Below are positions 12,800 through 16,722 of a stretch of 40,275 nucleotides of DNA, one piece after another. The DNA comes from an uncultured Fidelibacterota bacterium (lineage in GTDB: Bacteria > Fidelibacterota > Marinisomatia > Marinisomatales > UBA1611). A model generated the notes under the pieces. That model was given only the letters and a program-made list of their open reading frames with translations, did no database searches and had not been told where the DNA came from. Position numbers and translations under genes: made by a program. Numbering within the stretch: position 1 is the first letter of the stretch; every line of letters starts with the position of its first letter. The DNA lies in contig CAJWHW010000018.1 of NCBI GenBank assembly GCA_913040915.1, forward strand, positions 1-40,275. The letters are read 5' to 3'.

Positions 12800-14137
12800 C
12801 TAATAGCCATGGATAACTGGGTTTTTCAATGGCCCATCTAACTTTAATATAATTGTCGCTCCCTTCCTATTTAGTGTTTTTCCTTGTCCTTTTTCCCAAT
12901 TGCGTATCCATTTTCTCACACCCAAAGAAATTGGATGGATTTTTACTACCATTTTATGGAGAAGAATTTCTGGGTGTATTTTATCCTGCCTAAGAGAGTA
13001 ATCTCCATCAATATTTATTTTTAGGAATGGTGTTGCTAGTACAAATTTTATATCACCTGTATATTCATTCATTAGATTGATTGATAATTCTATCAATCTA
13101 ACTTTAAGCTCATTATTCCAAATTCCCAATGTTTCCAGCATAGATTGGATTTCTGGCTCATCCTTTAAACCATCGGGTATCTTGATTTCAAAATTCCTGA
13201 TTGTAAATTTTCCTTCACCGTGTTTGACTTTTGGTAGTGAAGATAAGTTTCCTAAAAATGCAACTTTCCTTACTTCCAGAACCAGATTAGCTAAATTTAT
13301 TCTGGTGTGATTATTCAAGTCATTTTCAGGATTTGCAGTAACAGAAATATTTTCAATTTTAAATTGACCTTGGTCCAAAATAAAATCAAAATTAGTCTTA
13401 TCAGGGTATTTGATTATTTCAATTTTAGATGAATATATTTGAGAAATTTCTCGAATATTTAAAGCATAATCCCAGAATGTTTCCGGAATATTATAGAGTG
13501 AATCATGTGCAGATTCCAATTGGAAGGTTCTGCTATGCCAATCAAATACGATTGGTTGAGTCTTAGGAATAGGATTGATATGAGTAGGATGGGCAATAAT
13601 CTGTCTAGGAAGTAATAGAGAATAAGTCCAGGTCTGATTTTTAAATGGCTCTCTATCTAAGTCTAAATAATTTTTAATATATAGATCATTTAATGAATTT
13701 GGATATTTTGTCATGTCCAACTTATAAATATCTACAGCATCAGCAATTAGATTGATAGTTTTTTTGGGAATAGATAATCTTTTTTCCAATCGTTTAATTT
13801 TTTCAGTAGTGACCCAGTCTTTTATAAAGACTCTTCCACCAAGTTTGAATCCATTTAAATTCAAATTAGGTCCTGATATTTTTGTAGAAATTAGTTGAGC
13901 TTTGCTATTCTGTCTTTGGTCTATGAATATATCGGAGAATCCAAAATTAAACTCATCTATCTCTATATAATATTTCGTTCCATTTTTTTCATCTACTGGA
14001 CTAAAGTCAAATTGAAGATTTTTTAGGAAAATACCTGTATTCGCAAGAGAGCCAGTTATTTGCCCATCTAAAAAGTTTATAAAAAGAATTAAAAGACTCA
14101 GATAGTAAATCAATAGATTTATTATAGTTTTTTTCAT
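12800..14137 (-). CDS. Exported hypothetical protein, beta-rich, with pilin-head-like internal segment and AsmA/GspN-like C-terminus
   Basis: 445-aa ORF with N-terminal hydrophobic signal, internal IADAVDIYKLDMTKYPNSLNDL and terminal LKLDGPLKNPVI. The CDS is clear; the family assignment is by eye only. Confidence 0.6.
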   Translation of the reverse strand: MKKTIINLLIYYLSLLILFINFLDGQITGSLANTGIFLKNLQFDFSPVDEKNGTKYYIEIDEFNFGFSDIFIDQRQNSKAQLISTKISGPNLNLNGFKLGGRVFIKDWVTTEKIKRLEKRLSIPKKTINLIADAVDIYKLDMTKYPNSLNDLYIKNYLDLDREPFKNQTWTYSLLLPRQIIAHPTHINPIPKTQPIVFDWHSRTFQLESAHDSLYNIPETFWDYALNIREISQIYSSKIEIIKYPDKTNFDFILDQGQFKIENISVTANPENDLNNHTRINLANLVLEVRKVAFLGNLSSLPKVKHGEGKFTIRNFEIKIPDGLKDEPEIQSMLETLGIWNNELKVRLIELSINLMNEYTGDIKFVLATPFLKINIDGDYSLRQDKIHPEILLHKMVVKIHPISLGVRKWIRNWEKGQGKTLNRKGATIILKLDGPLKNPVIHGY

Positions 14138-14246
14138 AGAAGACTTGATATTGATGAATTGATTCTATTTATTCTGTTTAAAAAATTAGTAGTTTTTGTG
14201 GTAGAAATTGGGAACAAAATTTCCCATAAATTGTTTTGAAACAACA

Positions 14247-14573
14247 ATGACAAAAAACTCAAAAATTGTTTACTCCACAGATACTTCTCAATCAATTGAT
14301 GAAAAGAAACCAAAATATAATTCTATTGATATTGCAGTTCAGAAAGTTAGAATACATTTAGATCGAAAGGGCGGTGGAAGAATCATTTCTGTTGTAAAGG
14401 GTTTAAATGAGTTGGACACTACATTGCTTACCATAGCCAAAGAATTAAAAAAAAGTTGTGGAGTAGGAGGCTCTGTCAAGAATGGTGATATTCTGATACA
14501 GGGGAATCACAGGGGAAAAATACAAAAAATATTAGTACAAAAAGGCTACAACGTCAAATTAAGTGGCGGATAA
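14247..14573 (+). CDS. yciH: Translation initiation factor SUI1/YciH family
   Basis: IVYSTD, ELKKSCGVGGSVK, IQGNHR and terminal KLSGG. The in-frame ATG at 14247 is preferred over TTG 14208. Confidence 0.92.
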   Translation: MTKNSKIVYSTDTSQSIDEKKPKYNSIDIAVQKVRIHLDRKGGGRIISVVKGLNELDTTLLTIAKELKKSCGVGGSVKNGDILIQGNHRGKIQKILVQKGYNVKLSGG

Positions 14574-14576
14574 AAA

Positions 14577-15770
14577 ATGAAATTAACAATAAAGTATTTT
14601 CTAACTGCTTTGATAGCTTCAATGCTATTCTGGTCTTGCTCTGAAGCATCAGGTCATGGATCAGTTACTATGGTACTTTCCGGTAGTGTTCATGGGCAGT
14701 TAGACCCCTGTGGCTGAAAGAAAAATCCACTGGGCGGTCTGTCCAGACGATATGTAAAAATCAATGAAATGAGGGATGAAGGAATTGACCCGCTGATTCT
14801 TGATGCTGGAGATCTATTTTTCAGTACATCTAAATTGAATCCAACAAATATAAAATCTGAGGAGTATCGTGCCGGAGCTATATTAGAAGGATATAGCCGA
14901 ATTGGTTGTGATGCTATCAATGTTGGTCATTACGAAGTTCTGAATGGGTTATCTTTTTTAAAGCAGATGGAAACAGAAAATGATATTCCGTTTTTATCCG
15001 CAAACTTAAGAGACCCGGTGACAAAATCACTATTATTTCAACCTTATCGGATTGTTGAAAAAGGGGCATTAAAAGTTGGCATCATTGGAGTGTCAGATAA
15101 GTTACCAGATACTACTGAATCCATTATTGCTGACGATTATATTGAAGCAGGCAATAGTTATATTGATGAAGTCTCTAAAGAAGCAGATTTAGTTGTGATT
15201 CTTGTTAATAGTGATCGTAAAACTTATAGTCAGTTGCCTGAAAAATTTGCAAATGCAGATTTTATTGTTACTAGTGGAAGTACAAATATGACAAGGCCAA
15301 ATACACCGCAGAAAAAAGGTGGACCTTATATTTATTCCTGCGGTAAACAAGGGAAATATCTATCTGTATTAACTATCAATCTATCTGATCAAATGGAACC
15401 AATTATAGATGTTTCTTCTCATGAAAAAAATATCAAATCGATTCAGAGAAGATTTAAAAAGTTGCAAAAGAAAGACCCGAAAAAACCATTAGAAGAGTTA
15501 TATGCCAATCAGAAGAATGTATTAAAACTTATTGAACAGTACAGACAGGACCTAAAGGAATCAGAAGATGTAATACAATCTGCTATTAATACCGTGGAGT
15601 TTCAAACCGTTGCATTGAATAAAAAAATTCAAGATAATCCAGAAATCTTAGCTTTTGTAGATGAATCACTTGCTACCTGTTCATCCTTAAAACCAAAAGA
15701 AGCAAAGACTAATGAAAAATCAAAAAGTAAACCAAAATATAAAGGGAATCATGTTGGGCATGATCACTAG
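14577..15770 (+). CDS. UshA-like (5'-nucleotidase N-domain fold) lipoprotein, probable selenoprotein (Sec47, CxU), 397 aa
   Basis: ATG 14577 is in frame with the track ORF 14769 and reads MKLTIKYFLTALIASMLFWSC...SGSVHGQLDPCG-UGA-KKNPLGGLSRR...LDAGD. There is a single in-frame TGA at 14715-14717 with a hairpin directly downstream. Confidence 0.9.
14715..14746 (+). promoter_or_regulatory. UGA codon plus bacterial SECIS-like element
   Basis: CTGGGC (14730-35) pairs with GTCCAG (14741-46) around loop GGTCT. GGUCUG is at +19..+24 after UGA, the same register as I recall for the E. coli fdhF SECIS. Confidence 0.85.
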
Positions 15771-15794: not shown

Positions 15795-16280
15795 TTGAAT
15801 TATAAAAAGCAACTCTCTTTCTATATTATTGGTGCAATTATTGCAGGATTCATATCAAATTTAGGTAGAGATGAATCCATCCCCTGGATTGCGGAACCAC
15901 TTAAAGTTGTAACAGAAGTAGATGATGCATTATTAATTCTTTCTGACCATCAGGTAAGAGAAATTGATTTTAATGCTGCACAATCCTTGCATAAAAAGGG
16001 AATGCTTTTTGTTGATGCAAGATCAGAAGAATATTTATCAGAAGGTATGATCCCTGGTGCTATAGCAAATGATGATATTGAATTATTGATTGAACAAATT
16101 GAGTATCTTCTTGGAGGGGTTGATAAAGGATTTGTGATATATTGCAGTGATGATGAATGCGGTTCTAGTGAAGATTTGGCATATGAATTACAGGATTTTG
16201 GTTTTATGAATATTTTTGTTTTTAAGGGTGGCTGGAAATCATGGACTGATGCTGGCTTGGATATTGAATTTCATGACTAA
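15795..16280 (+). CDS. Membrane-anchored single-domain rhodanese-like protein
   Basis: N-terminal TM, FVDARS, GMIPGAI, active-site loop IYCSDDECGSS and FKGGWKSW; TTG start. Confidence 0.9.
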   Translation: MNYKKQLSFYIIGAIIAGFISNLGRDESIPWIAEPLKVVTEVDDALLILSDHQVREIDFNAAQSLHKKGMLFVDARSEEYLSEGMIPGAIANDDIELLIEQIEYLLGGVDKGFVIYCSDDECGSSEDLAYELQDFGFMNIFVFKGGWKSWTDAGLDIEFHD

Positions 16281-16722
16281 AGTACATCCCTACATTGTTG
16301 TATTGATTAGATGTATTCTGGGTATAGTTTTTGTATATGCAAGCTATCAGAAAATACTAGATCCAGCAAAATTTGCCCGGGACATTTCTAACTACCATAT
16401 TGTACCCTTTGGTCTAGAAAATATTGTTGCATTGATTATTCCTTGGTTAGAACTATTGATAGGTATAGGTTTGATTGCAGGAATTATGGTTGATGGTGCA
16501 AGCTTAATCAGTGGTGGGTTGTTTGTATTGTTTATAATTTTAATCAGCCAAGCTATCATAAGAGGTTATAACATTGAATGTGGGTGCGGACTAAAGGAAG
16601 GAGAAATGGTTGGATGGATAAAAGTAATAGAAAATTTATTTTATTTGGCAGCATCTTACTTGGTCTGGAAAAGAGACAAAACAGAATTAGAATTTTTCCC
16701 AAAAACGACATTGTCAGAATAA
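16273..16722 (+). CDS. DoxX/MauE family membrane protein
   Basis: RCILGIVFVYAS...KILDPAKF, PWLELLIG and RGYNIECGCG motifs. ATG 16273 overlaps the rhodanese end and is preferred over 16216. Confidence 0.9.
   Translation: MTKVHPYIVVLIRCILGIVFVYASYQKILDPAKFARDISNYHIVPFGLENIVALIIPWLELLIGIGLIAGIMVDGASLISGGLFVLFIILISQAIIRGYNIECGCGLKEGEMVGWIKVIENLFYLAASYLVWKRDKTELEFFPKTTLSE

Follow-up and report, generated by a model that had tools for sequence, protein, structure and literature searches.

Does the in-frame TGA near the start of a long reading frame in this contig of a marine bacterium end translation, or does it specify selenocysteine (Sec), and what might a protein with such a residue do? The window, i.e. 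the whole stretch of 40,275 nucleotides that was analysed, had been the subject of a sequence-only reading, which proposed a hidden selenoprotein with a C-x-U motif and a SECIS-like hairpin; every coordinate in that reading agrees with the sequence. The best overall explanation, to which we assign a probability of about 0.9, is that positions 14577 to 15770 constitute one selenoprotein gene of about 397 residues, in which UGA47 is recoded to Sec. Judged from sequence, this UGA almost certainly does encode selenocysteine, in an UshA-like protein that is probably anchored in the membrane. This view is based on a UGA that is conserved and faces Cys in homologues, on a conserved and covarying hairpin, on the presence of Sec genes, and on the continued use of UGA as a stop elsewhere.

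When TGA is read as U, the stretch 14577-15770 is a single frame of 397 residues, whose sole in-frame TGA is codon 47 (14715-14717), within the sequence D-P-C45-G-U47-K-K-N-P-L-G-G-L-S-R-R. Under translation table 11, it instead yields two ORFs, 14577-14717 (46 aa) and 14769-15770 (333 aa). The table splits the frame at the TGA, and the called 333-aa ORF is therefore short by 64 codons, as had been suspected of the ORF in the track. The ATG at 14577 lies 3 nt past the stop of an upstream ORF, which had been taken for yciH and is indeed a SUI1/YciH homologue by Pfam. The features needed at this point are:

14208..14573, + strand: SUI1/YciH translation-factor homologue, upstream (Pfam PF01253, E 6.9e-18); 3 nt separate its stop from the start of the selenoprotein gene
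14577..15770, + strand: complete selenoprotein gene of 397 codons and a TAG stop, with UGA47 as putative Sec; UshA-like metallophosphatase-fold N-domain and helical C-terminal part
14709..14717, + strand: C45-G46-U47 motif, with the candidate Sec codon TGA at 14715-14717
14730..14746, + strand: predicted bacterial SECIS hairpin with a 6-bp stem and the loop GGUCU, overlapping codons L52-G53-G54-L55-S56-R57
14769..15770, + strand: truncated 333-aa ORF, an annotation artefact of table 11 calling (database entry P0002, 333 aa)

Reads with TGT or TGC at codon 47 had been named as evidence that would speak against Sec. The letters at 14715-14717 are unchanged in independent assemblies, namely a contig from another study (X2) and a contig from an RNA library (X18). 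The latter spans 14565-14735 with zero differences, but continues past the TGA for less than 31 letters and is for this reason not counted as bridging it. A further RNA-library contig (X19) spans 15147-15300; as RNA libraries can contain DNA, these two contigs are no proof of transcription.

Among relatives, the sequence-only reading had expected Cys or TGA at this position, and this is what the comparison returned. Across 40 genome loci, codon 47 is TGA in 26, TGT or TGC in 13 and GTG in one, which means that 13 of the 14 non-TGA loci carry Cys. The TGA-form loci, which may be orthologous or paralogous and come from 25 genomes of one order, all have their TGA at the same aligned codon (26/26). 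Matches with one in-frame TGA occur in 36 of 41 related genomes, and in the metagenome set, codon 47 is TGA at all 80 loci and TGY at none. The amino acids on either side of the TGA are kept and synonymous sites vary: P44 is encoded by four codons, C45 by two and G46 by four. Family-wide, conservation is found at C45, C/U47, G53 and G54; in 69 other family representatives, position 47 is recorded as Cys in 46, as 'W' in 13, as another residue in four and as a gap in six. Representatives without the two residues lack C45 and C/U47 jointly (4/4).

The hairpin lies exactly where it had been located, starting 12 nt after the TGA, with the stem strands CTGGGC (14730-14735) and GTCCAG (14741-14746) enclosing the loop GGTCT (14736-14740). 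It thus has what characterizes a bacterial SECIS, a stem-loop soon after the UGA whose apical loop contains conserved G/U. The codons GGC GGT CTG are invariant in 26/26 loci, whereas G46 is encoded by four different codons. Hairpin cells are paired in 94.9% of cases, compared to 24-55% in slid controls, and none of 500 shuffles reached the hairpin score, although this control overstates significance because the sequences are related. In the genome-locus alignment, covariation is limited to one pair, 27:39 (GC 15, AU 7, GU 3, UA 1); in two of the 80 metagenome loci, the closing C-G pair has changed to U-A on both sides. The RNAalifold consensus is the same hairpin. It is missing from Cys and Val forms: L-G-G-L is spelled with other codons in L036 (Cys) and L042 (Val), which have no such structure. 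Folding of the single sequence (71 nt, 14700-14770) is not significant alone (z = -1.64; 13 of 200 shuffles fold equally well), and at minimum free energy it adopts another, longer pairing, with the UGA enclosed. Likewise, an Rfam search of 14500-14900 at E up to 10 returned three chance-level matches and no SECIS. The conservation of both TGA and hairpin across relatives nonetheless points to more than chance.

The host had been supposed to possess selABCD, and this holds for three of the four genes: in its genome, a Marinimicrobia MAG that is 85% complete, selA (492.1 bits), selB (323.6 bits) and selD (385.6 bits) all score above their cut-offs, and selD itself contains one in-frame TGA and is thus Sec-containing. 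By contrast, a search of this 85%-complete assembly turned up no selC (tRNA-Sec); ARAGORN lists 30 tRNAs, none of them for Sec, and the best RF01852 match (46.3 bits) was rejected, as it is a tRNA-Ser. Of 24 relatives, 19 have a tRNA-Sec that scores above the cut-off, and the same genus is represented among them. In one genome of that genus (G001), it lies about 820 bp past the point where a contig of the host assembly (C9) ends, and this synteny would place the host tRNA-Sec just beyond the contig end. The host genome also holds further selenoprotein genes, two for AhpC/TSA proteins with T-P-G-U and one for a W-U-G-P-C protein; the genome-wide list of in-frame TGAs comprises 187 candidates, mostly noise, of which five were picked by eye for follow-up. 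Of the three refuting conditions that the sequence-only reading had named, none, when checked, speaks against Sec. Taken together, these features of the DNA suggest that Sec is inserted at UGA47. SelB carrying Sec-tRNA(Sec) would bind the hairpin 12 nt downstream, whose apical GGUCU loop is placed as in fdhF, and the Sec-tRNA(Sec) that it delivers would compete with RF2 at UGA47 on the ribosome.

Two further features concern the termini of the protein:

14577..14639, + strand: putative lipoprotein signal peptide up to Cys21 (14637-14639), as read from the sequence
15750..15767, + strand: His-rich C-terminal tail H-V-G-H-D-H, with H392 and H395 invariant in a 12-sequence alignment

A K-rich, hydrophobic N-terminus precedes Cys21, and export of the product with a lipid anchor at this Cys is probable. 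The residues before it, F-W-S, depart from the textbook lipobox; of the nine aligned homologues that cover this column, eight have a Cys that follows a hydrophobic stretch, and in P0079, the ninth, the N-terminus is foreign.

The read-through protein aligns with E. coli UshA in hhalign at a probability of 99.6%, its AF2 model has a pLDDT of 92.7, and the top Foldseek match of this predicted structure is CD73 (E 7e-21, TM 0.61 on the query). Pfam returned nothing significant for it, with four families at E 0.11-0.32, all under their cut-offs. Given this relatedness in fold and sequence to UshA and CD73, Sec might be inserted into what is otherwise an ordinary periplasmic UshA-like 5'-nucleotidase or phosphoesterase, in which the C-x-U motif is accessory and serves, for instance, a structural or regulatory purpose. 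Two of the six alignable metal ligands are indeed kept, as H39 and D79 align with UshA H43 and D84. The others argue against such an enzyme. The UshA ligands are D41, H43, D84, N116, H217 and H252, with H117 as the catalytic residue; in the alignment, D41, N116, H217 and H252 face S37, H118, N211 and G234, and H117 faces Y119. Moreover, the alignment stops at UshA residue 311 of 550, and the protein of 397 aa is without the C-terminal substrate-binding domain. Of the hallmarks of a catalytically competent UshA-type 5'-nucleotidase, it therefore has neither the full set of dimetal ligands with the catalytic His nor the C-terminal domain. The family as a whole conserves C45, C/U47 and the two glycines G53 and G54, while the positions facing UshA D41, H43 and N116 vary across its representatives. 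We consider an ordinary nucleotidase unlikely.

Relative to UshA, hhalign shows a four-residue insertion (D-P-C-G) before U47; this insertion in the UshA-like N-domain places the C-G-U motif right after motif I. We infer that C45 and U47 may act as a redox or chalcogen/metal-binding pair, not in phosphoester hydrolysis. The C-terminal His-rich tail, whose residues 388-397 have a pLDDT below 50, may bind metal as well. Two genes follow downstream:

15795..16280, + strand: rhodanese-domain protein with a hydrophobic N-terminus (Pfam PF00581, E 2.5e-11)
16216..16722, + strand: MauE/DoxX-family membrane protein (Pfam PF07291, E 2.2e-28; PF07681, E 1.3e-7)

Both are frequently kept together with the gene, the rhodanese neighbour at 17 of 19 loci from genomes and 66 of 80 from metagenomes, and the MauE/DoxX neighbour at 16 of 19 and 60 of 80; for the upstream SUI1 gene, the numbers are 17 of 19 and 73 of 80. 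A link between the selenoprotein and these conserved rhodanese and MauE/DoxX genes is possible. Beyond the host's order, a functional link of this kind is unsupported, with the neighbours found in 12 and 11 of the 68 cross-phylum members listed (within 3 kb, E 1e-3 or better). Tentatively, and with more doubt than confidence, we propose that the short Marinimicrobia form is a non-nucleotidase envelope lipoprotein, in which the C45-x-U47 pair, inserted beside a degenerate metal site, would serve in thiol/selenol redox chemistry or in sulfur/selenium (or soft-metal) transfer, in concert with the co-located membrane rhodanese and MauE/DoxX proteins.

Far less probable than an ordinary nucleotidase with Sec is an account in which a variant genetic code (4 or 25) assigns Trp or Gly to the UGA, or in which unspecific read-through passes it. 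Its appeal lies in the databases, where W is recorded in the 13 of 69 representatives mentioned above and in 10 of 11 aligned full-length homologues. These entries, however, go back to table-4 gene calling on short contigs: the sequence of one (P0020) is identical to that obtained by translating, with table 4, a locus (L105) whose DNA codon is TGA. TGG is found at none of the 80 metagenome loci, and the homologues without TGA carry Cys, not Trp or Gly. The conserved SECIS hairpin also speaks against this account. The sequence-only reading had excluded reassignment on the ground that TGA is a real stop elsewhere in the window; the ATGA/GTGA strings are present at the four places it had quoted, and the one at 2492 ends a 325-codon frame. 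The host genome bears this out. Its prfB gene for RF2 (515.8 bits) has the classic frameshift site AGGAGG...CTT TGA C with its UGA, and 311 of 1187 frames of at least 200 codons end in TGA, with a median of five codons to the next stop.

Equally improbable is that the TGA is a true stop, which leaves a pseudogene or two genes (one for a peptide of 46 aa, the other for a protein of 333 aa from ATG 14769): table 11 gives exactly these two ORFs, the 333-aa form stands in public databases (P0002) and tRNA-Sec was not found in the assembly, but a nonsense mutation would not persist at one codon in 26/26 genome and 80/80 metagenome loci, conservation at the protein level extends over the 46 codons before the TGA, Met65, the start codon of the 333-aa ORF, is Met in just 7 of 26 orthologues, and the Cys47 homologues run continuous.

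A recoded UGA47 leaves our knowledge of Sec decoding unchanged. Its significance lies elsewhere: the gene and hundreds of its relatives stand in databases either cut down to about 330-350 aa or with Trp wrongly entered at the Sec position, and the selenoproteomes of abundant ocean bacteria are consequently under-counted. The lost nucleotidase ligands, the neighbourhood conserved in the host's order and the cultured myxobacterial carriers provide handles for experiments. Should the redox or transfer reading hold, it would give a testable role to a long-catalogued UshA-like selenoprotein family. The carriers in question are Myxococcus, Corallococcus and Archangium, in which the same gene with its SECIS is among the matches listed from a DNA pattern scan; since the feature itself supplied the pattern, the matches give presence in other phyla, not frequency.

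How, then, does this locus compare to known systems? As for the hairpin, the closest reference is the SECIS of E. coli fdhF, which the sequence-only reading had given as carrying GGUCUG at the same offset. This was accurate: in E. coli K-12 fdhF as well as here, the distance from the A of the Sec TGA to the start of GGTCTG is 19 nt, in both cases within a hairpin shortly after the UGA. The stem sequences differ, the loop has 5 nt closed by C-G here and, on our reading, 6 nt in fdhF, and no bulged U is evident here.

As for the protein, it has the N-terminal metallophosphatase fold in common with E. coli UshA and human CD73, but is without their C-terminal nucleotide-binding domain and has four of the six aligned metal ligands replaced. 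SoxB thiosulfohydrolase, a periplasmic enzyme of the same superfamily, acts on sulfur compounds. Homology to its model (TIGR04486) is weak (E 1.3e-12), and the score of 46.8 bits, far under the cut-off of 550, argues against membership; no Sox genes were seen adjoining.

The nearest relatives are the UshA-like (COG0737) CxU selenoproteins, a family already catalogued from ocean metagenomes, whose members gene callers cut short. It was described in the GOS analysis of Zhang and Gladyshev (2008, PMC2398784), where it is tallied with 76 Sec sequences and 92 Cys homologues and listed as marine, and UshA-like selenoproteins are covered in reviews of 2022 and 2026 (PMC9312934, PMC13188914). That such proteins are a reported selenoprotein family, as the sequence-only reading had stated, is borne out by the passages on it in PMC2398784 and PMC13188914, which give it without a function. 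The gene studied here has the UshA homology and the CxU with putative Sec by which the literature defines the family. It also matches NF041198, 'UshA-like (seleno)protein' (UshA_like_PCGU), with which it shares the P-C-G-U/C motif, homology and the side-by-side occurrence of Sec and Cys forms. Its score (E 5.2e-71, 239.8 bits) lies under the curated equivalog cut-off of 275, which none of the 41 related genomes reaches, and the match covers positions 2-396 of the 519 in the model, leaving about 400-519 unmatched. Unlike the family at large, it stands in a SUI1 - gene - rhodanese - MauE/DoxX order that is conserved in the host's order. It is a shorter form of an already published family, in which the C-terminal domain is gone and most UshA metal ligands are lost.

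The evidence assembled here supports reading 14577-15770 as a real selenoprotein gene that has been mis-annotated. The frame opens at ATG 14577, three bases past the stop of a SUI1/YciH homologue, and extends to TAG 15768-15770 with a single internal stop, TGA 14715-14717, which is why gene calling under genetic code table 11 splits it into two ORFs. The local features are as follows.

12800-14137, reverse strand: flanking ORF of 445 aa, no Pfam family at E <= 0.01, kept as a neighbor in 13 of 19 relatives
14208-14573: upstream ORF, SUI1/YciH homologue (PF01253, E 6.9e-18)
14577-14717: first table-11 ORF, 46 aa
14730-14735 with 14741-14746: hairpin stem, 12 nt after the TGA, enclosing the loop GGTCT (14736-14740)
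14769-15770: second table-11 ORF, 333 aa
16938-17684, forward strand: flanking ORF of 248 aa, no Pfam family at E <= 0.01

Read through, the frame yields 397 residues, with a basic and hydrophobic N-terminus up to Cys21, followed by a strand, the segment S-V-H-G-Q-L-D-P-C45-G-U47-K-K-N-P-L-G-G-L-S-R-R and then L-D-A-G-D. The sequence-only reading had proposed a hidden selenoprotein with selenocysteine at position 47, and its coordinates for the frame, the TGA and the hairpin all proved correct when the sequence was rechecked. Two independent contigs, namely X2 from the DNA of another study (781 nt, 14534-15314) and X18 from an RNA library, which may contain DNA (171 nt, 14565-14735, ending less than 31 nt past the TGA), show no alternative letters at 14715-14717; X18 does not amount to proof of transcription. 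Two marine runs contain short contigs that match 14685-14747 solely over 45-60 nt around the TGA and hairpin and then diverge, which fits other organisms or paralogues that share just this highly conserved stretch.

The expectation that homologs would carry either Cys or TGA at position 47 was borne out. In a six-frame search with the NCBIfam model NF041198 across 41 genomes (the window's own and 40 relatives from its genus, family and order), 37 gave matches, and 36 of these contained at least one match with one in-frame TGA; the remaining genome, G035, has the stop-free form only. At the 40 loci with a codon aligned to position 47, this codon is TGA in 26, TGT or TGC in 13 and GTG in one. 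The motif is always P/L-C-G-TGA in the TGA forms and C-G-C, C-L-C or C-Y-C in the Cys forms, while the GTG locus has also lost the first Cys. Several related genomes contain two or three such UshA-like genes, and the window's own genome has a second, partial paralogue (L041, G000:C65:1-1500), cut by the start of its contig, with P-C-G-TGA, the TGA at locus base 21 and a GGCGGTCTG loop. A scan of metagenome contigs found TGA in 80 of 80 loci, with neither TGG nor TGY in any. More broadly, a library of representatives at 50% identity contains 5588 relatives of the query with E <= 0.001. Of these, 69 were aligned with it, and 63 extend across the site. Among the 69, Cys occupies position 45 in 59, and the entries at position 47 are 46 Cys, 13 'W', four other residues and six gaps. 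All four representatives with another residue also lack Cys45, and this joint loss suggests that positions 45 and 47 work as a pair.

An apparent Trp, a residue that the sequence-only reading would have counted against selenocysteine, is present in 10 of 11 aligned database homologs (P0004, P0009, P0013, P0016, P0018, P0020, P0052, P0057, P0083 and P0108, all full-length), the eleventh, P0079, having a foreign N-terminus. It is an artefact, as the underlying codon is TGA: P0020 is identical throughout to locus L105 translated under table 4, and the 65-residue segments around the Trp in P0004 and P0057 are table-4 translations of L079/L081 and L124/L127, respectively, all with TGA. The full-length Trp versions come from short contigs on which genes were called under table 4. 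The remaining database entries are mostly truncated at the N-terminus (about 320-352 aa, 84-87% of the query), and the close homologs are named Candidatus Marinimicrobia.

Reassignment of UGA has not occurred in the host, where it still acts as a stop: prfB is present (515.8 bits) with its +1 frameshift site, the '1 TAA' of its single-frame search sits upstream of the shift and outside the gene, and 311 of 1187 open frames of at least 200 codons end in TGA, with a further stop following after a median of 5 codons. The machinery for selenocysteine insertion, which had been supposed to comprise selABCD, was found in three of its four parts in the window's genome (G000; 1.86 Mb, 71 contigs, 85% complete), in which selA (492.1 bits) and selB (323.6 bits) lie adjacent on contig C16. 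The selD gene itself contains an in-frame TGA, and three further genes have one at classic redox positions, two of them AhpC/TSA genes (E 5e-37 and 4e-38). These features lie outside the window.

L144 71-1108 (contig C6), reverse strand: selD, 385.6 bits, one in-frame TGA near the N-terminus, G-S-G-U
L141 (G000:C35:9850-10350), reverse strand: AhpC/TSA peroxiredoxin, T-P-G-U
L142 (G000:C28:307-762), reverse strand: AhpC/TSA peroxiredoxin, T-P-G-U
L143 (G000:C32:4992-6485), reverse strand: AhpC/thioredoxin-like protein, 497 aa, W-U-G-P-C, carrying Por_Secre_tail, a sorting tail for type-IX secretion
L145, about 181-258 (contig C13): prfB frameshift site in its classic programmed form, AGGAGG ... 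CTT TGA C

The fourth part, selC, was not found in the 85%-complete G000 with either RF01852 or ARAGORN; the best RF01852 match (46.3 bits) is actually a tRNA-Ser, and ARAGORN reported only 30 tRNAs, none of them for Sec. A tRNA-Sec above the cut-off is present in 19 of 24 relatives, including G001 of the same genus. In the G001 locus L150 (G001:C202:25500-31500), the 2.2 kb upstream of it are collinear with bases 1-2160 of contig C9, and the 2.9 kb past it have no match in G000. C9 stops about 820 bp short of the corresponding place, so that selC is probably missing through a break in the assembly.

The hairpin is conserved in related loci. Its loop is encoded by the invariant G-G-L residues of the family, and codons 53-55 are GGC GGT CTG in all 26 TGA forms, in which Gly46 is encoded by GGA (10), GGT (6), GGC (5) or GGG (5) and Pro44 by four different codons. 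Two control loci, L036 (a Cys form) and L042 (the Val form), specify this L-G-G-L with GGA GGA TTG and GGA GGT TTG, respectively, and show no such hairpin. In the 6-bp stem, 94.9% of 156 cells are paired, compared with 24-55% after the 3' arm is shifted by 1-3 columns; covariation is seen at one pair (GC 15, AU 7, GU 3, UA 1), and another alternates between G-U and G-C. The covariation score was reached by 0 of 500 shuffles, a control that overstates significance because the sequences are related. RNAalifold returns the same hairpin as the sole consensus structure. When the 51 nt from the TGA onward are folded one sequence at a time, 21 of the 26 loci form this loop, one forms it shifted by a base and four adopt other structures. 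The 80 metagenome loci have GGCGGTCTG in 77 cases, GGTGGTCTA, in which the closing C-G pair has become U-A through changes on both sides, in two, and GGCGGGCTG in one. Folded alone, the 71-nt stretch 14700-14770 is unremarkable (z = -1.64; 13 of 200 shuffles as good), and in its minimum free energy structure the UGA is enclosed by another pairing; an Rfam search gave no SECIS match. In E. coli K-12 fdhF, the A of the Sec TGA is followed 19 nt later by the start of GGTCTG, as the sequence-only reading had stated, and the window has the identical offset.

In the window, the gene order is SUI1, selenoprotein gene, rhodanese (PF00581) and MauE/DoxX (PF07291). The SUI1 neighbor is kept in 17 of 19 genome and 73 of 80 metagenome loci, rhodanese in 17 and 66, and MauE/DoxX in 16 and 60; several of these loci are cut by contig ends. 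The ORFs listed for rhodanese and MauE/DoxX share 65 nt (16216-16280), each in its own frame, and MauE may actually start at a later position. A scan of species genomes for P-C-G-TGA and a GGN-GGT-CTG loop at the same spacing found at least 120 stretches, which indicate presence and not frequency, as the pattern was taken from the feature itself. Of 80 loci fetched among the matches listed, 68 encode a relative by tblastn, and the carriers include Neomarinimicrobiota, Fidelibacterota, Desulfobulbales and other Thermodesulfobacteriota, Myxococcota and others, with cultured Myxococcus, Corallococcus and Archangium (L156, L157, L192, L198 and L220 are among the pattern loci). Since only 12 of these 68 listed relatives have the rhodanese neighbor and only 11 the MauE neighbor, the neighborhood is largely specific to Marinimicrobia-like lineages, and might at most hint at a functional link with these proteins.

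On the structural level, the family profile aligns with residues 25-311 of E. coli UshA (hhalign, probability 99.6%), and the AF2 model has high confidence (pLDDT 92.7, pTM 0.88), with CD73 and UshA as its best solved matches (E 7e-21, TM 0.61 on the query). UshA D41, H43, D84, N116, H117, H217 and H252, which we take to be metal ligands and the catalytic His, face S37, H39, D79, H118, Y119, N211 and G234 in the hhalign alignment, where D-P-C-G forms an insertion immediately ahead of U47. The C-terminal nucleotide-binding domain of UshA is missing; its place is taken by helices and a single strand (residues 280-371), and a His-rich tail closes the sequence. From the replaced ligands and the absent domain, we infer that it would not be a working nucleotidase. 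The functional center is probably the C-x-U pair, which adjoins the degenerate metal site and could be redox-active or bind chalcogen or a soft metal.

As the sequence-only reading had stated, UshA-like CxU proteins are a reported selenoprotein family. PMC2398784 lists 'COG0737, UshA-like' under the motif CxU, for which the Global Ocean Sampling yielded 76 selenoprotein sequences and 92 Cys homologs, counted as previously characterized and among the few families without a thiol-oxidoreductase-type motif; the family is listed again in PMC9312934 and PMC13188914, the latter giving NF041198 for it. The available text of these three papers holds no functional assignment, and among the papers listed on Marinimicrobia and selenocysteine, no title or abstract concerns the window protein. 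NF041198, named 'UshA-like (seleno)protein, PCGU', matches the read-through protein over model positions 2-396 of 519 (E 5.2e-71, 239.8 bits; cut-off 275), and its cut-off is reached in none of the 41 related genomes. The selenoprotein thus belongs to a known, already published family, of which it is a shorter form, scoring too low for the NCBIfam equivalog threshold.
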